This document shows, one piece after another, positions 2,946 to 12,037 of a stretch of DNA of 64,000 bases (positions within the stretch are counted from its first letter, which is position 1; the number at the start of each line of letters is the position of its first letter). This stretch comes from Acidobacteriota bacterium (GTDB lineage: Bacteria; Acidobacteriota; UBA890; WLXD01). Under the pieces are notes generated by a model, which did no database searches, was not told the DNA's origin, and was given only the letters and a program-made list of their open reading frames with translations. Made by a program: the position numbers and the translations under genes. The DNA lies in the NCBI GenBank assembly GCA_965248695.1, contig CBDFKD010000002.1, forward strand, positions 2,304,001 to 2,368,000, read 5' to 3'.

Positions 2946-3683
2946 TTACAAACGAGACATTGCGATCAGTGAGGTGATCGAGCCGGTACCCGTCAGCGCG
3001 CCACTCACGGCGATGTAGCGATCCACCGTGCCGGTTGCACCGAGGCGTTCGGCGAACGGAGCCGAGACGTTGTTGGTGAACGTAATGAGATCTGCGAACA
3101 CTGTGTTATCGGCCGAGTCGCGGATCTTGACCGACAAGCCCGTGATGCCCGCAGCGGCGTTCACGACGAGGTACCCCACAGCGCCGTTGGCCGAACTGGC
3201 ACCGTTGTCCAGCGTCTGGCTCTCGGTATTCCAGTCGGCCGTTTTGGATTCCAGCGGCTGCAAAAGCACACACTCGTCGCGCTGCCCGGTCACCAGGCAT
3301 GTGGCGTTGGCTCGGTGTAGATCGCCTTGCGACATCATTACCTGGTAACTCTGCTGATACAGACCCGACAGACCCACGCACGCATCCCCCACGCCCTTGG
3401 AGGGGCCGTACACGAGCAGGCGCGGTACCGCCTGCACCGAGCTCGGCACCGAGCCCCCTAGCGCCGCGTGGCTGTTGTTGGCTCCGGTATCAAAGAACGC
3501 TCCCTCAATGCTCAGCTCCACTTGGCGCACACCGATGGGCGTGTGCTTTTCCCACCCGTCTCCAAGCCCATCGGTGCGCACGGTGGGAACGGTGACCGTT
3601 TCGGATAGCTGCTGTGGACTGGCGGCCGTCAGGTCATAGCCATCCACCGTAAGGAACACATCGGCGGGACCGTAGCGTGTCAT
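2946..3683 (-). CDS. Tail-tube-like protein with extra C-terminal domain
   Basis: N-terminal ~140 aa shares motifs with 2481-2903 (YG..V.LT, GDGWEKHTPIGVR). Confidence 0.6.
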   Translation of the reverse strand: MTRYGPADVFLTVDGYDLTAASPQQLSETVTVPTVRTDGLGDGWEKHTPIGVRQVELSIEGAFFDTGANNSHAALGGSVPSSVQAVPRLLVYGPSKGVGDACVGLSGLYQQSYQVMMSQGDLHRANATCLVTGQRDECVLLQPLESKTADWNTESQTLDNGASSANGAVGYLVVNAAAGITGLSVKIRDSADNTVFADLITFTNNVSAPFAERLGATGTVDRYIAVSGALTGTGSITSLIAMSRL

Positions 3684-5257: not shown

Positions 5258-5797
5258 CTACGCCCTCACCAGTTGGCGCGTGCCGGAGGCACGGCCCCGC
5301 ACCGCGTAGTACCAGTGCTCCGGGATCAGCAGCACCACCAGGTCCGGCACCGCCTTGGCAAACACGGAGTCTTTGAACTCCAACTCCACCGGCCCTGCCT
5401 TGATCCTGGTGATGCCTTTGGTCTCGATATCGGAATCATCCGTGCGGCCGAGATCGGCCAGCAGTTGCCGGGCGTATTCCGCCTGCGCGTTCTTAATCTG
5501 CACCGGGATCTCGGTGGAGGCGACGTGCTCAAACCCGGTCGGCTTGAGCATCCCCGTGCGGGGCCATTGCAGCGCCTGGTTCCGATCCACCGCGTGCCCG
5601 CTCCACTCAAAGGCTCGGTCCAGCAGCAGCGTCGCCATCAACAGCGCCTTGGTCTTGGCACCCTCCTCGGTGCTCGTGGCTGTCCACGCCGTACCGGACG
5701 CGACCCGGTCCTCGTGGTACTGCTCGGCCTCCCCCAGCGTGGCGTAGGTGTTGCTCCAAGCCCCGCCGACGGTCGCATTCAGTACCGAGGTCGCCAT
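5258..5797 (-). CDS. Head-tail adaptor (DnaT-like N-terminus)
   Basis: NTYATLGEAEQY, QALQWPR, IPVQIKNAQAE, KAGPVELEF motifs. Confidence 0.8.
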   Translation of the reverse strand: MATSVLNATVGGAWSNTYATLGEAEQYHEDRVASGTAWTATSTEEGAKTKALLMATLLLDRAFEWSGHAVDRNQALQWPRTGMLKPTGFEHVASTEIPVQIKNAQAEYARQLLADLGRTDDSDIETKGITRIKAGPVELEFKDSVFAKAVPDLVVLLIPEHWYYAVRGRASGTRQLVRA

Positions 5798-5970
5798 CAG
5801 TTCCCCTTGCGCCTTTTCGTAGGCTGCGCCTTGGACTTCGGCTTGCCACCGCCTCTAGCCTTCGGCTTGGCTATCTCCTCGTAGTCGTGTTCGTTGAACT
5901 CTTCTCGATTGATCACGCACTCCGCCCCATCGCTTTTGCGACGGACTTTCTGAGTCGGTATTGCAGCCAT
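5797..5970 (-). CDS. Small 57-aa phage protein with basic tail (not in ORF track)
   Basis: MAAIPTQKVRRKSDGAECVINREEFNEHDYEEIAKPKARGGGKPKSKAQPTKRRKGN; TGATG coupling to next gene; AGGTG RBS. Confidence 0.7.
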   Translation of the reverse strand: MAAIPTQKVRRKSDGAECVINREEFNEHDYEEIAKPKARGGGKPKSKAQPTKRRKGN

Positions 5971-5993
5971 CGCTTTGTCACCTAGGGGGTGTG

Positions 5994-6030
5994 GGCTCGG
6001 TCGCGAGCACGCAGCCAGCGCGACCGAGCC
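5994..6030 (-). promoter_or_regulatory. 12-bp perfect stem-loop downstream of the capsid gene (no U-tract)
   Basis: GGCTCGGTCGCG (5994-6005) and CGCGACCGAGCC (6019-6030). Confidence 0.6.
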
Positions 6031-6052
6031 TCATCATTGTGGACCCAGCCGA

Positions 6053-7168
6053 TTAGCCTGCGACGCGCACCGCCAGCTCCGGGCGAACCGTCTGCACACC
6101 GTAGAGGGAGTCGTAGGAGAAACGAGTCCTCTTGTGCTGACGCGACACTTCCAGTCGCAGCGCCAAGCCCGATACCGGGTCGACCGCCGCGCGGAACGTC
6201 CCGACTCCCATCGGGTCGGCTCCCTGGAACGGCCGCATGGCCAACGCGAAGGCGTCACGGTGAAACGCCAGGTTCACCGTGTGGCTGCCCTTGAACGTCA
6301 GCGCCGCATCGTCGGCCCAGGCAACCTTCGACGCCGGTGCGTAGGTGATGACGTTGCTCCCGTAGGCCTCCACGACGTAGGTCTGCGTGTCACCGGCCAC
6401 CGTGAAGATGTCGCCCTCGGCGGGATCGCCCGAGCCGGTATCGATCGTCACGGTTCCGTTGCCCACCACATGGTCCGACTGGTTCACCAGCCAGCCTGAG
6501 CCGCCGCCCGTGGTATGCGTTGGAACGTTCTGGTCCATCGCCCACATGGAGCCGAGCTTCTCGCCGATCTCACCACGCAAGATACCCTGACGGTCACCCC
6601 GGTAACTGGCGTCCTGGAAGGCGCGCAGGTTCAGCGCGTTCGCCTCTGCATCCGGATCGATCACGCAAAAGCGTGGATCCAGTGGCGCGAGCTGTTCGTT
6701 GAGCACCTTGCGGGCGTTCACGAACGCCGACAGGTCGCTCGTGAACGGCGTGGTGCCCGCCGTGCCGGCGTACCCGTAGATGTCCTTGTACTTGGCAAGG
6801 ATGGCGTTGTCGATGTTGTTCGCCAGCGCCTTGATCGCCTCGGAGGCTTGCATCGGGATCGTTCCCGACTGCACCTCCAGCATTTCCTTGTCGTTGAGGA
6901 AAAACGGCGCCTCGTACCACTGATCCAGTACGAGCGACACCTTCGTCGGCGCGATCCCGGCATCGTCGGGCGGCGTGTTGGAAGGCGTTACCGCGGTTGC
7001 GGCGATCGCCGAGGGGATCGGTACATCGATCGTCGAGTACTGATCGCCCGGAACGTTTTCGTAGGCGCGGTTGACGAACCGCGGCATGACCACCATCTCG
7101 CGCAGAGCCAACAGACCCTGTGCCAACAGACGGTCAACGATATGCGTGGTGGTGTTGGTATTGGCCAC
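6053..7168 (-). CDS. Major capsid protein, P22 gp5-like (GTG start at 7168)
   Basis: GGAGGAG RBS at 7185-7179; LAQGLLALRE, STIDVPIP, NLAFHRDAFALAMRP, YDSLYGVQTVRPELAVR. Confidence 0.9.
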   Translation of the reverse strand: MANTNTTTHIVDRLLAQGLLALREMVVMPRFVNRAYENVPGDQYSTIDVPIPSAIAATAVTPSNTPPDDAGIAPTKVSLVLDQWYEAPFFLNDKEMLEVQSGTIPMQASEAIKALANNIDNAILAKYKDIYGYAGTAGTTPFTSDLSAFVNARKVLNEQLAPLDPRFCVIDPDAEANALNLRAFQDASYRGDRQGILRGEIGEKLGSMWAMDQNVPTHTTGGGSGWLVNQSDHVVGNGTVTIDTGSGDPAEGDIFTVAGDTQTYVVEAYGSNVITYAPASKVAWADDAALTFKGSHTVNLAFHRDAFALAMRPFQGADPMGVGTFRAAVDPVSGLALRLEVSRQHKRTRFSYDSLYGVQTVRPELAVRVAG

Positions 7169-7200
7169 TGTCGGGGCACTCCTCCACAAAAGAAGTTGCG

Positions 7201-7490
7201 GATTCGTCCCCACCGGGGCGCGGCCCCCTGGATCTGAAGAGACCCTGTTAGCCGCCGTGACCTAATGGCGTGCCACGTCACGCTCTCAGAATATGTCTTA
7301 GTACTACCGAATTCGTCCCCACCGGGGCACGGCCCTTGGATCCTTCAAGATCCACCAGCCGCCGCGGCTTCGTACCGCACCGCGTCACGCTCGGTTACTT
7401 CCGATTCGTCCCCACCGGGGCGCGGCCCCCTGGATCTGAAGAGACCCTGTTAGCCGCCGTAGCCTAATGGCGTGCTACGTCACGCTCGGT
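7201..7490 (-). ncRNA. Three tandem copies of a ~90-nt structured RNA element in the capsid leader
   Basis: Copies at ~7201-7285, 7306-7395, 7401-7489; conserved GAGCGTGA and CCCCGGTGGGGACGAAT ends; compensatory changes in stems. Confidence 0.75.
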
Positions 7491-7501
7491 ACTGCTGTCC
7501 T

Positions 7502-8263
7502 CTACTGTACTACGGCCTTGCCGGCCGCAATGTCCTCCAAGCTCCCCCCGAACTGATCTTCCGAAACCATACGTGCCATACCCGTTGTGGAACCGCTCGT
7601 ATCGCTCGGGCGTGCTCCACCTCCGGTGGATTCCTTGAACAGATGCGCCGCTTGTCGCTGTAGCCTCTCGCCCCACTCTTGCATCGTGAGCGGCAGCGCC
7701 GGGTTGATTTCGGAAAACAACGGCTCCTCGCCACGCTTGGCAACGACCTTGCCGTCCTCTTCGGTCAGCTGGAAGACCGCTGTTCCACGAGACAAAAAGT
7801 CTTCCCACGCCTCGTCACGTACTCCGAGCTTGGATCCCACGGTTCGCAGCTGCGACTCAAGATCCTTCCGTGCCGCTTGCTGCCGTGCCGCCACCTCGCG
7901 CGCATTGGACTCATCGAGCTTTTTTGCCAATGACTCTAGCTGCGCCTGGATCGCTTGCATCTCCGCGTCCTTCTTGGGCGCCGTCTTCTTCAACGTCTCA
8001 AGCTCCGTGACGGCGCTCGTGTACTTGTCCTCAAGACCGGAGATCTCATCGAGCCTCGTGGTCAAATCACCGATCTTGCTGTTCAGACCAACGTTGCTAT
8101 CCCGGAAATGCGCCGTGGCCTTCTTCTGCTCCTCCAGCTCCGAGGCCACCACCATCCCCGGCACATCGCCTTCGAGCTTCAGTACGTACTTACCGTCACG
8201 CTCCACGTACTCGTCGCGAAGTGCTTCGGCAACGGCACCCAGATCTTCAACGACGACTTGCAT
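7502..8263 (-). CDS. Capsid scaffolding protein
   Basis: ALRDEYVERDGKYVLKLEG start, coiled-coil middle, HLFKESTGGGA C-terminal motif; upstream of capsid. Confidence 0.85.
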   Translation of the reverse strand: MQVVVEDLGAVAEALRDEYVERDGKYVLKLEGDVPGMVVASELEEQKKATAHFRDSNVGLNSKIGDLTTRLDEISGLEDKYTSAVTELETLKKTAPKKDAEMQAIQAQLESLAKKLDESNAREVAARQQAARKDLESQLRTVGSKLGVRDEAWEDFLSRGTAVFQLTEEDGKVVAKRGEEPLFSEINPALPLTMQEWGERLQRQAAHLFKESTGGGARPSDTSGSTTGMARMVSEDQFGGSLEDIAAGKAVVQ

Positions 8264-8411
8264 GCTCCCACCCTGTCAGCGCGACCGACCGTGGCCCCCC
8301 GGCTACGGTCCGTTGCGTCTGAATCCGTCTCCTTGAATCAATACGACGATCCTGGTCGCGGTGTCAAGCACCTACCGTCGATCCGATTAACCACGCGTGC
8401 TCAGGTACGAG

Positions 8412-8463
8412 AAGGTAAACTTTCGCTTACCTTATTGACTGAAGTAAGGAACTACTGTATATT
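8412..8463 (+). promoter_or_regulatory. vapBC promoter and operator
   Basis: TTGACT (8435-8440), 17 nt, TATATT (8458-8463); inverted repeat AAGGTAA-N8-TTACCTT (8412-8433). Confidence 0.75.
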
Positions 8464-8488
8464 GTAAGGAAAGCCTTGAGGTGCTGCC

Positions 8489-8722
8489 ATGATCGAATCT
8501 TCTATCAGCAAGAAAGGACAGACAACACTCCCCAAGCCCGTACGGGAGATGCTCGGCGTCCAGGCTGGGGACCGGGTACGCTACGTCATTGCCGACGGCG
8601 AGGTGCGAATTCTGCCCGTGCGCTCCATCAATCGGTTGTTCGGCGTGCTACAGCATGATGGCCCCGCCCTTGCGGTAGAGGAAATGGAGCAGGCCATAGC
8701 CGACAGCGCGGCTGAGGGATGA
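8489..8722 (+). CDS. vapB: AbrB/MazE-type antitoxin
   Basis: ISKKGQTTLPKPVREMLGVQAGDRV swapped-hairpin motif; ATGA overlap with PIN gene. Confidence 0.9.
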   Translation: MIESSISKKGQTTLPKPVREMLGVQAGDRVRYVIADGEVRILPVRSINRLFGVLQHDGPALAVEEMEQAIADSAAEG

Positions 8723-9111
8723 TCGCGCTCGATACCAACGTTCTCGTCCGCTATCTGGTGCGCGACGATGTGCAACAGGCGGAGGCTGCTCGGACGTTAC
8801 TGGAGTCGCTCACGATAGATTGTCCCGGCTACGTCTGCCGCGAAGTAATCGTCGAGCTTGTCTGGGTATTGGAACGTGCCTACAGGTTCCCCCGTAAACG
8901 AATAGCGACGATATTGGAACAACTCGTGGCGACCGATGGTCTCGTAGTCGAAGAGGCAGACGATGTAGCCCGTGCAGCGTTTCGATACCAGGCGCATGGC
9001 TCTGGATTTTCTGATCTGATGATTCTGGCAGCGGCCGAACGATCTCAGGCCCATCCGCTATATACCTTCGATAAGAAGGCTACACGGCTTGAAGGTGTGA
9101 CGCTGCTATAG
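8719..9111 (+). CDS. vapC: PIN-domain toxin
   Basis: MIALDTNVLVR...E...FSDLMI...TFD PIN motifs. Confidence 0.92.
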   Translation: MIALDTNVLVRYLVRDDVQQAEAARTLLESLTIDCPGYVCREVIVELVWVLERAYRFPRKRIATILEQLVATDGLVVEEADDVARAAFRYQAHGSGFSDLMILAAAERSQAHPLYTFDKKATRLEGVTLL

Positions 9112-9144: not shown

Positions 9145-9726
9145 CTAGCGGCCGTCTGTAGCGATCCCCACCGCACACCGGCACCGAGGATGCGCCGGTG
9201 GCCCCGGAATCAGAAACGGCTTGCCAACCTCCGCCACGGCGTCACGCATCGGCTCACAAATCGGGCAGAGCCGATCATCCGGCGTGACGATCCATACTTT
9301 CTTCTGCCCCTTGGGCAACAGCCCCGCCCGCTGCGCCTGACGCCAGGATTCTTCCTGCCCCGCATTGAGCGCGTTCATCACCTCGGTGCGGGCGATTGTC
9401 TTGGCCCGCTCCCGAAGCTTCTTCTGCACGTAGCGGTCCACCTTGCGGTCGACAAACTGCAGCGTCAGCCCCTGGTCGATCAGCTCGGCGCGGTAATTCA
9501 GCGCCGCTTGGACCTGTTGCGCGTTCAGTCCGATCATCGGTTGGATCGCGCGTGCCGCCTCGAACGGAGGCTGCCCCTCGCGGATGGCGCGCACGATGGC
9601 TGCACGAATACCCCGACGGGTCTCCTCTGAGACTCCCTTGACGAGCCGTGCCGCATGGCGGGCAGCGGCGCGCTGTGCTGCCGGGAGCGTGGCGTCGAAC
9701 CGGAAGGAAGTGCTGGTCGTGGCCAT
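9145..9726 (-). CDS. Phage minor head / head morphogenesis protein (Mu gpF / SPP1 gp7 domain)
   Basis: RAKTIARTE, KVWIVTPDDRLCPIC, PPAHPRCRC. Confidence 0.88.
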   Translation of the reverse strand: MATTSTSFRFDATLPAAQRAAARHAARLVKGVSEETRRGIRAAIVRAIREGQPPFEAARAIQPMIGLNAQQVQAALNYRAELIDQGLTLQFVDRKVDRYVQKKLRERAKTIARTEVMNALNAGQEESWRQAQRAGLLPKGQKKVWIVTPDDRLCPICEPMRDAVAEVGKPFLIPGPPAHPRCRCAVGIATDGR

Positions 9727-10333: not shown

Positions 10334-10625
10334 CGGGAAATAACCCCCCCTTGACCATCTCGGATGCAATGGCGTTGCATACCAACTCTTCGAGTTCTTG
10401 ATGCTCTTCGAGAACCGAGCTCAGCCCCCGCACGAATAACACCGCATGCACCCACTCATGCAGCAGCACATAGTGCTTCCATTCACCGTCCGGCAAGTCC
10501 TCTGCTAGCCGAATGTGCGGCGTCGGCTGGCTAATAAACTCGCCGTGAGCCTCCTCGGTTATATGGATACGAGGCACCTCCTCAACGGCTACCGATATCC
10601 CGTCAACTCTTAGAACCCTGCTCAC
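10323..10625 (-). CDS. Small HExxH metallopeptidase-like protein (ImmA/IrrE-like)
   Basis: YVLLHEWVHAVL...EELVCNAIA; coupled to portal stop. Confidence 0.75.
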   Translation of the reverse strand: MSRVLRVDGISVAVEEVPRIHITEEAHGEFISQPTPHIRLAEDLPDGEWKHYVLLHEWVHAVLFVRGLSSVLEEHQELEELVCNAIASEMVKGGLFPDAT

Positions 10626-12037
10626 GCCACCTCTCCCACGAGCGCCGGTCCCTGACGCCCGATCTCCGCTTGTTCCTCCTCCGCACTCACCCCCGGCCGC
10701 GCCAGCTCGCCCTTCTGCATCGCCGCCCAGAAGGTCTCAAACGACACCGCGTCCGCCTGCAACGCCAACACCAAGGAGCGCAACATGTCGGCCCTCATCG
10801 GCACCGCCACGAAGTCCTTGTTCAGCTCGTAGGCAACCTCCACGTCGCTTGGCTTGGCTTCCGTACCCATCCACCAGGCGTGATACCGCCACGCCTGACC
10901 CAGGGCACTCTCGATCGCCTGCGCCACCGTTCGCAGCGTGGCGTGGGCCCCAGCGTGACGCATCCCTACCGCCGTGGCGGTCTCCGCCGCTCGCGGCTGC
11001 TCTTCCAACAACCGCGCACCCAGCGTCGCCATCATGAGGCGCTTTTCCTCCGATGCCTTGTCCAACGCCCCTAACCCCTGGCCGGTGAACTCCAGCATCC
11101 CCGCCTTACCGGTGGGCTCCAGCATCCACGCTGTGCCCGAGCCGATCTCCAACCGCCCTGACTCCTCGTCCTTGATCCCGGCTACCCACGGGGTAGGCAG
11201 TGCCGTGAAGTGTCGCCCGTGCTCTAGGTCCGCCATCGTCCGGTAGTGCGACAGGTTCACATCCACCAGGTCCAGCAGGGGGGGCTTGTCCACCCGAGCC
11301 GACGTGGAGTTTGGAGACACGAACACGAAGGGAATGAACGGCAGCGCCTCGCCGCGCCGTATCGCCACCACTTCCGGCTCCTGCTGCCCCGGCGGTGTCC
11401 ATGGTTCGTACTTGGAGGAGGATTTCGAGGCTTTCCGATACACCGTTTGCGTATATGCCCCGTCTCGTAGCCGCAGCACCCGGTACTGATCGATTTGCCG
11501 CGTGACGAACTCGTCTCGCTCATCGGGCTCCCGCGCTACCTCTCTGAGCACCACCCGTGTAGTGATCTCATCGCCACCCAGACGCTGCGTGCGCCACGAC
11601 ACGATGTCCTCGGCCCGATACCCACACCAGTAGGGTCGCTTACCCGCTACCTGTTCGGAGCCCATCTCCACCAGGATTCCGTAGCGACCCGTCAGCAGCA
11701 CCTCGCGGGTAGCTTGGAGTGCGAACGTCTCGGCCGACTCGCCCCCTAGCGTCACGTCCCTATCGTGATCCTGGATGCTTGCGGGCAGCAGAAGCGTTGG
11801 CTCTTTCTGAAAGATCAGTCCCGCCAAACCATCCACCGTGCGTCCGGTGGCGTTGTAAAACAGCGCTCGTTGCTTGTAAGCCTCGTACTTGGCTGGCTCG
11901 CGTCCGTGGCTCGCTAGCGGGGGCAGGTATCCAGCCCCCTGCTCCTTGACTGCGTCAGAGCCTTCGTAGCAATGACGCACCCGCTGCCACTTGGTGACGA
12001 ACGCCTCATACGTATCGGAAGCGGTATCTACTGGCAT
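10622..12037 (-). CDS. Portal protein (DUF4055-like)
   Basis: YEAYKQRALFYNAT, KPPLLDLVDVNLSHYR, AETATA motifs; follows terL. Confidence 0.88.
   Translation of the reverse strand: MPVDTASDTYEAFVTKWQRVRHCYEGSDAVKEQGAGYLPPLASHGREPAKYEAYKQRALFYNATGRTVDGLAGLIFQKEPTLLLPASIQDHDRDVTLGGESAETFALQATREVLLTGRYGILVEMGSEQVAGKRPYWCGYRAEDIVSWRTQRLGGDEITTRVVLREVAREPDERDEFVTRQIDQYRVLRLRDGAYTQTVYRKASKSSSKYEPWTPPGQQEPEVVAIRRGEALPFIPFVFVSPNSTSARVDKPPLLDLVDVNLSHYRTMADLEHGRHFTALPTPWVAGIKDEESGRLEIGSGTAWMLEPTGKAGMLEFTGQGLGALDKASEEKRLMMATLGARLLEEQPRAAETATAVGMRHAGAHATLRTVAQAIESALGQAWRYHAWWMGTEAKPSDVEVAYELNKDFVAVPMRADMLRSLVLALQADAVSFETFWAAMQKGELARPGVSAEEEQAEIGRQGPALVGEVA

Follow-up and report, generated by a model that had tools for sequence, protein, structure and literature searches.

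A tripled structured RNA before a P22-type phage capsid gene, a candidate two-state translational control leader

The gap between the head scaffolding and major capsid genes of a phage in the window (the whole stretch of 64,000 nucleotides analysed) contained three tandem structured RNA units, members of a real RNA family. In 17 other phage contigs one full unit directly precedes the gene for the major capsid protein. The helices of the units covary, their place before capsid genes is fixed, and they carry a covarying complementarity to the capsid ribosome-binding region. In the best reading they would form a leader of a new kind that controls the translation of head proteins by switching between two folds, and that has been tripled in this phage. 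The predicted pairing of one hairpin (P4) and its tail with the capsid start site, the exclusive states and the enrichment of the hairpin apex in head-gene leaders are newly described here. The genes and units concerned were located as follows:

6053..7168, minus strand: major capsid protein gene (371 aa, P22-coat-like; PF11651, 1e-18; phrog_283, 3e-72)
7201..7285, minus strand: unit C, nearest the capsid start (covariance-model match 7197-7290, 85.1 bits)
7309..7392, minus strand: unit B, the diverged middle copy (covariance-model match 7306-7397, 80.7 bits)
7403..7487, minus strand: unit A, read as GAGCGUGA-P2-P3-G-P4-ACGAAUC (covariance-model match 7399-7492, R2 90.6 bits)
7502..8263, minus strand: head scaffolding protein gene (253 aa; phrog_206, E 3e-19)

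With the scaffold gene ending at 7502 and the capsid gene starting at 7168, the gap measured 333 nt (window 7169-7501, mRNA on the minus strand), in agreement with the approximately 330 non-coding nt first claimed. The capsid start was assigned to the GTG (GUG) codon at 7168-7166, instead of the start of a longer open reading frame at 7213, because the first 17 residues of the long frame lie outside its PHROG match and a Shine-Dalgarno sequence, GGAGGAG, lies at 7185-7179. Homologues of the capsid protein numbered 2687 at E ≤ 1e-10, and the scaffold gene gave only weak, coiled-coil-type matches in Pfam. A promoter and terminator scan of the gap predicted no promoter and no strong terminator; one weak terminator-like prediction, at 7213-7198, corresponded to the P4 3' strand and tail of unit C. 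In four runs from a single sample, short-read unitigs are interrupted at the A/C repeat, where the depth is doubled, and include a unique 204-nt middle piece, a pattern that fits the three-copy layout in a sample that may be the source of the window's assembly.

The location and the mRNA (minus) strand originally given for the repeats were borne out, with three units of about 85 nt in the gap. A repeat search aligned A with C over 85 nt at 96% identity and, as had been stated, the two differ at three positions, all within P2 and all keeping the pairing (A-U to G-C; G-C to G-U). The stem sequences quoted at that time were correct, and in unit B both P2 and the inner P3 hairpin are indeed rewritten with their pairing kept. 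A 28-nt 3' block is common to A, B and C (93-96% identity, spacing 109 and 93), as is a 39-nt 5' block (67-72% identity). The 17-mer comprising P4 and tail occurred three times in the 64-kb window against 0.34 expected, a count reached in none of 100 shuffles. Tandem Repeats Finder reported nothing on the array, presumably because the middle copy is too diverged. When folded in isolation with RNAfold, units A (z -2.0) and B (z -2.7) gave the four-helix fold and unit C gave it weakly (z -0.6, P1 open); in all three the sense strand was more stable than the antisense strand. The proposed cloverleaf closure therefore held in part, as P1 closes well in A and B, but it is the weakest helix and is open in C.

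The covariance model R1, trained on the three window copies only, found full-length single units ending 20-60 nt upstream of the capsid start in L051 (E 7e-8), L067, L068, L054, L045, L070, L071 and L161. Units in metagenome contigs outside its training set (L300, L267, L262, L292, L278 and L268) were found with model R2, of whose 43 matches at E ≤ 5 30 lay inside a scaffold–capsid gap. The suspected tie to P22-like capsid genes was thus seen in all 17 contigs. The tandem arrangement of three four-way junctions did not survive as the defining feature, since the relatives examined are single-copy and P1 is only partly supported. With the array as blastn query, nothing was matched among 50,697 phage records and only three partial matches (33-42 nt, E 3e-5 to 3e-3) were obtained in the genomes of 100 relatives; the exact 17-mer was absent from IMG/VR contigs. 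The pattern CCCCGGNGGGGNCGAA, tried as an association test, was rejected as too unspecific, with 119 stretches in viral contigs. Among the 80 matches listed of these 119, two precede the window's capsid family and one was scored strongly by R1; most of those listed lie inside open frames, an indication that is weak in GC-rich DNA.

Over 20 sequences, 85.1% of cells in the stems were paired compared with 66.0% after shuffling (0/500 as high) and 34-42% when the partner was slid, in alignments fitted to the covariance model, which lean towards structure. The values by helix were 96.6% for P2, 87.0% for P3, 90.7% for inner P3 and 97.5% for P4; for P1 it was 64.5%, with two inner pairs invariant and two outer pairs mostly failing. 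Two-sided changes were observed in 23 of the 26 pairs of these 20 sequences. The members being related, independent compensatory events are few, with roughly five P4/spacer types. The stem covariation predicted at the outset is therefore real, and a structured RNA is encoded on the mRNA strand. The stems contained 28 G·U pairs and 6 A·C, an excess that favours RNA over duplex DNA. After the hairpin there is a conserved, single-stranded tail, NCGAA(U/C). Over 49 loci, the distance from the end of the last hairpin to the start codon had a median of 36 nt, most values falling between 27 and 46 nt.

The compact, tandem folded units of about 90 nt, together with hairpin units duplicated in other phages too (e.g., in the L006 gap), might suggest self-cleaving or processed small RNAs, either pRNA-like or anti-defence decoys, or else a selfish repeat or a DNA-level site. 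Rfam 15 gave no match in the whole window and none at E ≤ 10 on 7100-7600, ribozyme families included, in line with the original remark that the unit could not be assigned to a known riboswitch or ribozyme; in 20 related loci Rfam matched only tRNAs (L036), with nothing inside the gaps. A tRNA is also excluded, with no ARAGORN gene in the window, a P4 loop of 3 nt, a long P3 arm with an internal loop and a P1 of 2-7 bp, and the 85-nt units, separated by linkers of 10-23 nt, do not form a CRISPR array. Nor is it a REP or MITE, the 5.89-Mb genome holding six units, three in the capsid leader of each of two prophages, and the P4-plus-tail pattern nowhere else. R2 gave eight weak matches in 150 further genomes of the phylum, none of them before a capsid gene or credible; by eye they resemble coding sequence, and three represent one conserved stretch in related genomes. 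Since every examined relative is also single-copy at a fixed distance from the start codon, and the G·U excess speaks against a site in duplex DNA, this whole group of explanations is considered very unlikely. No description of the element was found in the full-text literature searched; the predicted set of PMC10690425, in the available part of which 10,006 viral structured RNAs are predicted, including five that precede capsid genes of another family, may overlap the present family.

Only unit C, among the three, was joined to the capsid ribosome-binding region, through the following elements:

7208..7218, minus strand: P4 hairpin of unit C (CCCC GGU GGGG), paired in 97.5% of cells in 20 family members
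7183..7202, minus strand: P5 hairpin (UCCGCAA-CUUCUU-UUGUGGA), between the tail and the Shine-Dalgarno sequence (pair probabilities 0.99-1.00)
7173..7185, minus strand: Shine-Dalgarno GGAGGAG (7185-7179) and spacer GUGCCCC (7179-7173), the spacer pairing with GGGGAC (7211-7206) of unit C

Identical P4 hairpins are present at 7317-7327 (unit B) and 7410-7420 (unit A). The distance from the 3' end of P4 of unit C to the start codon is 39 nt (family median 36 nt), and the 3' strand of P5 includes the first GGA of the Shine-Dalgarno sequence.

In 12 of the 17 members, copy C included, P4, with its C-GGN-G apex, and the CGAA tail showed complementarity with the ribosome-binding region of the capsid gene, and the minimum free energy structure of the P4-to-start segment was an extended P4:start-site helix in 12 of 17. 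A P5-like hairpin was found in the 11 relatives with the extended helix. The complementarity was lacking in five members (L051, L067, L045, L300 and L267), and in Vibrio phage SSP002 it comprised, by eye, 4 bp only. Energies of the extended form were -32.0 kcal/mol in L068 and -32.4 kcal/mol in L084, against -14.0 and -14.4 kcal/mol, respectively, with P4 enforced; the values for window unit C were -24.6 and -19.1 kcal/mol, and the gap between the two states in the window was 3.6-5.8 kcal/mol. The partition function of the full leader paired 7173-7176 with 7211-7208 (p 0.94) and 7178/7179 with 7207/7206 (p 0.91-0.92), and the minimum free energy of 7160-7225 had a z of -2.8 (0/200 shuffles).

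A MAFFT alignment of the P4-to-start segment misregistered the long-range helix; pair counts were not taken from it, and the helix was assessed by own-versus-cross duplex permutations instead. The P4 duplex with the ribosome-binding region of its own locus was stronger than with those of other loci in the unit family (-11.6 vs -8.6 kcal/mol), in 49 loci of the wider family (-9.3 vs -7.2 kcal/mol) and in 42 loci outside the R2 family (-8.92 vs -7.26 kcal/mol), and the observed mean was reached by 0 of 10,000 permutations in each of the three tests. The hairpin loop covaried with the Shine-Dalgarno–start spacer (GGU/ACC, GGA/UCC, UGA/UCA, GAA/UUC and GUUA/UAAC). For unit C itself the duplex is modest, at -9.1 kcal/mol, a value equalled by 22 of 200 shuffled regions. 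In the energy models P4 of A pairs with P4 of B instead of both forming hairpins, which may be an artefact or may mean that the hairpin state needs help.

The P1/P4 bases 7205-7211 also pair with 7173-7179. The four-way junction and the helix hiding the start site are mutually exclusive, since both use these bases, and the unit with the start-site helix has, in its predicted folds, a riboswitch-like architecture. An aptamer-like junction with an expression platform and mutually exclusive helices could be a metabolite or ion riboswitch, each junction being one aptamer and three of them steepening the response, as tandem aptamers occur in other riboswitch classes. The conserved "unpaired" bases are, however, largely explained by alternative pairings, one between the tail and the Shine-Dalgarno sequence, the other between the 5' CGYG and the beginning of the P2 loop. 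Moreover, in many relatives this apex caps simple hairpins that are not part of a junction, scaffold leaders carry it where no platform is present, and the capsid gene offers no obvious metabolite logic, so that a ligand-sensing role appears highly improbable.

On balance, and with moderate confidence, the units are regarded as a cis-acting control element in the capsid mRNA leader that would operate as a two-state translational RNA switch. In the first state each unit would fold P2, P3 and P4, closed by the short P1, leaving the capsid Shine-Dalgarno sequence and start codon exposed. In the second, P4 of the start-proximal unit C would open, and its loop, 3' strand and first tail bases (GGUGGGGAC) would pair with the Shine-Dalgarno–start spacer; the P5 hairpin and a GAA/GGA junction would bury the Shine-Dalgarno sequence and the start codon would pair with the 5' side of P4/P3, so that capsid translation would be blocked. 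Because P1 and P4 share bases with the sequestering helix, whatever stabilises the junction and the hairpin should switch capsid synthesis on. The two states would alternate in vivo. The invariant C-GGN-G apex would be recognised by a trans-acting reader, and the two extra upstream units may provide more binding sites or anti-start-site segments and thereby a sharper response. Of the original interpretation, a structured, capsid-tied leader tuning capsid synthesis is thus favoured, and the tripled junction as its defining trait is not.

The apex was not confined to full units. The density of C-GGN-G hairpins was 11.2 per kb over 60 distinct capsid gaps and 0.48 per kb elsewhere (23-fold), with at least one in 49 of the 60 gaps, and the wider conserved signal is, as judged from these predicted hairpins, a C-GGN-G cap about 36 nt upstream of the start codon. 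A second positional peak was found at the scaffold start: 14 of 56 callable scaffold leaders had such a hairpin, about 1.6 being expected from the background density. In the window the hairpin concerned ends 24 nt before the scaffold ATG (8263), and relatives have C-GGN-G hairpins at the same place:

8288..8310, minus strand: scaffold-leader hairpin GACCGUAGCC-GGG-GGCCACGGUC (z -3.0, 2/200 shuffles)

Before the major tail gene of the window, by comparison, the leader contains no C-GGN-G hairpin. A C-GGU-G hairpin at 2843-2853, considered as a third leader site, was discarded as it sits inside a coding frame. In the 76-kb genome of Vibrio phage SSP002 there is one cluster of two C-GGG-G hairpins, located in the capsid 5' UTR downstream of a terminator and a promoter-like site.

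The presence of the apex in both capsid and scaffold leaders suggests a common reader, plausibly a head-assembly protein such as the scaffold. A tentative extension, which we rate well short of probable, is that the C-GGN-G hairpins serve as operator in a feedback circuit for head assembly, with the tripled junction as a three-input, steeply cooperative gate. One reader, free scaffolding protein or another head protein from the same message, would bind the apex in both leaders and flip the capsid-leader switch, so that coat synthesis would be strictly coupled to its assembly partner. This circuit would be common to a large group of phages whose coats are of the P22 type; here the sensor would have grown into a four-way junction and then been tripled, and all three identical anti-start-site segments would have to be held as hairpins before the start site stays free.

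The same distribution could be explained without a dedicated protein if the Shine-Dalgarno-like apex and 3' strand (GGNGG...) were a ribosome standby or decoy site, at which a 30S subunit docked through its anti-Shine-Dalgarno sequence would open the sequestering helix and load the true start, three units recruiting more ribosomes to the most needed head protein. Pairing with parts of the 3' tail of 16S rRNA, CACCUCC, is possible for GGUG, GGAG and GGGG but not for GGCG; the third apex base in the leaders is U in 48 cases, G in 30, A in 17 and C in 8, with GGCG being the commonest background form (144/345). A universal reader would also fit a signal kept in phages of unrelated hosts (Acidobacteriota, Vibrio, low-GC contigs) and placed before scaffold and capsid, the proteins needed in most copies. 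On the other hand, A, which gives the canonical GGAGG, is not favoured as third base, the highly expressed major tail gene lacks the hairpin, no other SSP002 leader bears such a cluster, highly expressed genes included, and neither state leaves the G residues of the 3' strand unpaired. Ribosome docking is therefore thought a rather doubtful explanation.

REP elements and the RNase III sites of phage T7 uncouple the half-lives of neighbouring messages, and a hairpin followed by a single-stranded tail is the usual setting of an RNase E site. The GC-rich, stable hairpins, with their conserved NCGAA(U/C) tail and intercistronic place in a gap with no predicted promoter or strong terminator, might likewise block 3' exonucleases or flank an RNase E-type cut in the tail (CGAAUU) and so uncouple the scaffold and capsid mRNA half-lives. 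The SSP002 hairpins, however, lie in a 5' UTR behind a promoter-like site and after a terminator, not between co-transcribed genes, and their start is about 25 nt away from the probable 5' end, to which a 5' stabiliser must lie closer. A barrier needs neither a fixed apex nor a fixed start-codon distance nor complementarity to the ribosome-binding region, and a role in processing or stability is thus judged unlikely.

To our knowledge, the control of the coat/scaffold ratio in tailed phages is understood only in outline, and a conserved, uncatalogued RNA element has now been defined at this control point of the head-gene cluster. It offers a testable two-state design, covarying hairpins against a helix hiding the start site, and its fixed apex, common to the scaffold and capsid leaders of phages of unrelated hosts, a cultured Vibrio phage included, is a handle for finding the reader. 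RNA databases and phage annotation also gain a new family with this element, its tripled form is a natural test of the effect of copy number on the response, and a compact hairpin-operated translational switch might be reusable.

The closest logic among known systems is that of Com/mom in phage Mu, where the ribosome-binding region of a late gene is locked and a protein-held adjacent hairpin frees the start; the same scheme, hairpin state on and extended helix off, is proposed here. The element differs in that it has several helices, is conserved in many phages, is restricted to head genes and is tripled, with its direction of control predicted. No Com-like zinc-finger protein was found. The 57-aa basic protein of the window, considered as a Com-like reader, contains a single Cys and lacks a zinc-finger pattern, and weak homologues of its N-terminal part are encoded after the capsid gene whether or not a locus carries the unit, which speaks neither for nor against it.

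Translational riboswitches with several sensor domains in a row, such as tandem glycine aptamers, likewise have serial domains and a junction sensor whose closing helix competes with a helix sequestering the Shine-Dalgarno sequence. In the present case no ligand is indicated, the platform is found at the last unit only, the simpler relatives are bare hairpins, and the family stands outside Rfam. The boxB sites of lambda and P22, short hairpins read by N in antitermination near promoters, share the free stems, the fixed apex and the few defined places in the transcript; a phage-protein reader is a property of boxB. They have a GNRA-like pentaloop, in contrast to the C-GGN-G triloop, fixed start-codon distance and complementarity to the ribosome-binding region seen here.

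In P22 itself, which has the same coat fold, the scaffolding protein autoregulates post-transcriptionally with the scaffold message as target, a feedback tying head-protein synthesis to assembly; we know of no RNA element or target site defined for it. The element described here belongs to the capsid leader, the scaffold leader having a simpler counterpart, and protein binding to the element is putative. Finally, conserved elements directly before phage translation starts are also represented by the SAS/ESAS of Cluster K mycobacteriophages, which, in the available part of PMC3203893, immediately precede the start codons of some of the genes, in some cases carry inverted repeats and are suspected by the authors of a role in translation initiation. 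As described in that part, they are conserved in sequence, with a 13-bp site and 17-bp inverted repeats, and precede many genes of one phage cluster, whereas in the present family the stems covary freely, the apex and tail are fixed, and head genes only are preceded.

All genes around the array are encoded on the minus strand, in an order running from the portal to the major tail protein, and the features relevant to this analysis are as follows (units A, B and C being the three RNA copies):

10622-12037, minus strand, portal (phrog_145)
9145-9726, minus strand, Mu-F-like head morphogenesis protein
8310-8288, minus strand, hairpin GACCGUAGCC-GGG-GGCCACGGUC in the scaffold leader, ending 24 nt before the ATG
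7502-8263, minus strand, scaffold (phrog_206)
7487-7403, mRNA (minus) strand, unit A
7392-7309, mRNA (minus) strand, unit B
7285-7201, mRNA (minus) strand, unit C
6053-7168, minus strand, P22-coat-like major capsid protein (PF11651, phrog_283)
5797-5970, minus strand, 57-aa basic ORF, immediately 3' of the capsid gene, its C-terminal tail strongly basic
5258-5797, minus strand, head-tail adaptor, followed by further connector genes
2946-3683, minus strand, major tail protein

The capsid gene starts at GTG 7168, preceded by the Shine-Dalgarno sequence GGAGGAG (7185-7179); the PHROG match to the capsid begins at residue 18 of a longer ORF with its start at 7213. From this GTG and the scaffold end, the scaffold–capsid gap is 333 nt (7169-7501). 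Weak tblastn matches to the N-terminal 30 residues of the 57-aa ORF recur at the equivalent post-capsid position across many related loci, L081 being the best (E 9e-5).

The original prediction of three tandem four-way-junction RNAs described the units accurately, with a reservation only for P1, the helix closing the junction, which is well closed only in A and B. As had been stated, the changes between the outer copies keep pairing: three of 85 positions distinguish A from C, each of them within P2 and paired. Unit B retains the 5' GAGCGUGA, the P3 base, P4 (CCCC-GGU-GGGG) and the tail ACGAAU, with P2 and the inner P3 hairpin rewritten. The 17-mer of P4 plus tail occurs three times in 64 kb (0.34 expected). 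The B–C linker (7286-7308, minus strand) is 23 nt long, AT-rich amid 65% GC, and holds the 8-nt palindrome UAGUACUA; the A–B linker has only 10 nt and could form a UCGG/CCGA mini-hairpin competing with P1 of A and B. In each copy, the conserved 5' GCGUG could pair with CACGC, which straddles the boundary between the P2 5' strand and the P2 loop (unit C 7269-7285). This GCGUG:CACGC hairpin replaces P2 in the RNAfold sequestered state of unit C, and C|GCG is found at the corresponding P2 loop position in most family members.

No Rfam 15 family matched across the window at gathering thresholds, or on 7100-7600 at E ≤ 10, and ARAGORN found no tRNA-like gene in the window, in agreement with the earlier statement that the units could not be assigned to tRNA or a known riboswitch. 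The 5.89-Mb genome contains exactly two copies of the array and six units, all in two prophages, so that a dispersed host REP/MITE is excluded. The second array lies in the prophage region G000:C2:5196176-5199471 (L002), which was compared with 5700-8992 of the window. The stretch from the scaffold leader to the end of the capsid gene is 99.8% identical, and beyond about 8370, on the upstream side, the two are unrelated; the two prophages are therefore mosaics with a common head module. The sole difference inside the array is at apical loop position 7438. The three-copy layout is consistent with short-read unitigs of four sequencing runs, all made on a single sample that may itself have been the assembly's source. 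A promoter-like TTGACA-18-TATTGA lies at 8338-8367 (minus strand), about 75 nt before the scaffold ATG, where the identity of both prophages begins; a promoter scan did not call this site and called ATGGCA-18-TACAAT at 8490-8461 instead. TATAAT-like boxes precede the scaffold leaders in several relatives.

Capsid homologues were collected (alignment A2) and their loci taken from genome contigs (18), IMG/VR (80) and metagenomes (80), the closest genome-contig loci being Vicinamibacterales MAGs with 58-61% identity. A covariance model from the three window copies alone (R1) found full-length single units whose ends lie shortly upstream of the capsid start, in L051 (E 7e-8), L067, L068, L054, L045, L070, L071 and L161. 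A second model, R2, was built from 11 sequences, and its matches outside the training set include L300, L267, L262, L292, L278 and L268. Thirty of the 43 R2 matches at E ≤ 5 fell within the scaffold–capsid gap; the unit is tied to P22-like capsid genes. Every related locus with a unit has a single one per gap, and two in one gap were found in no related locus examined; tripling is peculiar to the window phage among the phages examined. One Vicinamibacterales MAG prophage (L006:2777-2997) has a gap with internal direct repeats, each with a C-GGG-G hairpin and with ACAGACCGCGACGGGGUCGCGGGUCGGUCG present twice, so hairpin units were duplicated independently in another phage. One IMG/VR contig (L036:13-1910) carries seven tRNA genes, identified by Rfam tRNA matches, upstream of the head genes.

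Covariation was assessed in alignment A5 (20 sequences: the three window units and 17 loci), from which near-duplicate loci (e.g., L071, L050, L272, L290, L294) are absent, having been removed before the search. Paired cells amounted to 85.1%, whereas shuffling gave 66.0% (0/500) and sliding the partners 34-42%; since A5 was fitted to the model these values are biased towards structure, and the P2/P3 exchanges are still plain in the raw rows. Both sides had changed in 23 of 26 pairs, and P2 (96.6%), P3 (87.0%), inner P3 (90.7%) and P4 (97.5%) were well paired, supporting the stems as drawn. For P1 the figure was 64.5%: the two innermost pairs, formed by the 5' CG and the tail CG, are invariant, the two middle ones covary and the outer two mostly fail.

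Most relatives' gaps, many of them without a full unit, contain one to five hairpins whose stems vary freely and whose tip is a C-G-closed GGN triloop. When stems of 4 bp or longer were counted, the sense strand of 60 distinct gaps (60-450 nt) carried 103 of these hairpins (11.2 per kb), versus 345 for both strands of the remaining 719 kb (0.48 per kb). At least one was present in 49 of the 60, with two as the commonest number. In the stems, G·U pairs (28) outnumber A·C pairs (6), which assigns the structure to the mRNA strand. Among relatives, the distance from the end of the last hairpin to the start codon has a median of 36 nt; it is 39 nt in the window. In a positional plot covering 84 distinct loci and stems of 5 bp or more, 92 hairpins lie within 100 nt upstream of the capsid start (59 loci), 24 in the 100 nt beyond and 0-7 in other bins, except for a second peak 800-1100 nt upstream, which corresponds to the scaffold gene start.

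Of the 56 loci whose scaffold start could be called, 14 have a hairpin at most 60 nt upstream of it (about 1.6 expected from background density), and in L051, L067, L045, L058, L061, L063 and L094 twin C-GGU-G hairpins abut the scaffold Shine-Dalgarno; the upstream flanks of L300 and L267 are too short to judge. Part of the scaffold-start peak is coding coincidence, 12 of the 56 loci having a C-GGN-G hairpin in the first 150 nt of the scaffold coding sequence. By eye, a V/L-P-E-A motif near the scaffold N-terminus of several loci (e.g., L078, L036, L006) is written GUGCC-GGA-GGCAC; this C-GGA-G hairpin inside codons may be coincidence or dual use.

The cultured Vibrio phage SSP002, with a capsid 51% identical, has between scaffold and capsid a terminator-like hairpin and a promoter-like TTGACG-17-TATAAT (both by eye), then two C-GGG-G hairpins. 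In SSP002, then, the hairpins belong to the 5' UTR of the capsid message and do not mark a processing site between co-transcribed genes. No second C-GGG-G cluster precedes any other gene in its 76 kb, and in the window the major tail gene has no C-GGN-G hairpin in its leader. Since the apex is common to scaffold and capsid leaders in phages of unrelated hosts and absent from these other leaders, the data point to a single reader (a putative factor recognising the apex) tied to head assembly. The main rival reading assigns this role to the 30S subunit. GGUG, GGAG and GGGG can pair with parts of the 16S 3' tail and GGCG cannot, a capacity that fits the third loop base in gaps (U 48, G 30, A 17, C 8; background dominated by GGCG); however, A is not favoured there, and the hairpin is missing from other abundant late genes.

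The segment from P4 to the start codon was compared and folded for all members. A competing extended structure was predicted as the MFE fold in 12 of 17, window unit C among them. In it, the P4 loop, 3' strand and next two bases pair with the last Shine-Dalgarno G's and with the spacer as far as the start codon, which itself pairs, along with the GC after it, with the 5' strand of P4; a short hairpin in between, P5, is flanked by GAA of the conserved tail and GGA of the first Shine-Dalgarno half. Energies of the MFE versus P4-enforced folds were −32.0/−14.0 (L068), −32.4/−14.4 (L084) and −24.6/−19.1 kcal/mol (unit C). No complementarity to the ribosome-binding region was found in five of the 17 (L051, L067, L045, L300, L267). 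P4 duplexes were stronger with a locus's own ribosome-binding region than with those of other loci in the R2 family (−11.6 versus −8.6 kcal/mol), in 49 loci of the wider family (−9.3 versus −7.2) and in 42 loci outside the R2 family (−8.92 versus −7.26), and in each of these three tests the observed mean was reached by none of 10,000 permutations. The loop bases, free in the plain hairpin, track the spacer (GGU/ACC, GGA/UCC, UGA/UCA, GAA/UUC, GUUA/UAAC); thus, the complementarity covaries.

For the full window leader, predicted pairs join 7173-7176 with 7211-7208 (p 0.94), 7178/7179 with 7207/7206 (p 0.91-0.92) and start-codon G 7166 with C 7217 (p 0.85), with GGA 7185-7183 in the P5 stem (p 0.99-1.00). 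As A7207, C7206 and G7205 are also the P1 3' strand, the closed junction and the start-site-hiding helix are mutually exclusive. For unit C with its ribosome-binding region, the states lie 3.6-5.8 kcal/mol apart, so that a bound factor could tip the balance. For the upstream units the energy model pairs P4 of A with P4 of B instead of folding each into a hairpin, because the sequence is near-palindromic; this predicted contact was treated as uncertain.

The modelled architecture is that of a translational riboswitch or a protein-operated operator, in which P1-P4 would act as the sensor and P5 with the ribosome-binding region as the platform, present only at unit C. The favoured reader would be a phage head protein, e.g., free scaffold, which by holding the hairpins would license coat synthesis. 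Units A and B, whose P4 segments are identical to that of C, may add reader sites; alternatively, they could be extra anti-start-site segments, all of which would need to be in the hairpin state before the start site stays free. Either arrangement would steepen the response.

The array is a genuine cis-acting RNA of the capsid message, both conserved and uncatalogued. It is very probably a functional structured leader; that capsid translation is controlled through the hairpin/start-site alternative is given slightly better than even chances. Full-text literature searches found no description of the element, and it is a new RNA family, which may be included in the lists of a 2023 survey (PMC10690425) reporting 10,006 predicted viral structured RNAs. 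In function it resembles Mu Com/mom activation and translational riboswitches, and in distribution fixed-apex hairpins of the boxB type and the SAS/ESAS of Cluster K mycobacteriophages (PMC3203893), without being a member of any of these. Within a known kind of mechanism it is a new arrangement, combining a tripled sensor, a single platform and an apex common to the scaffold leader.
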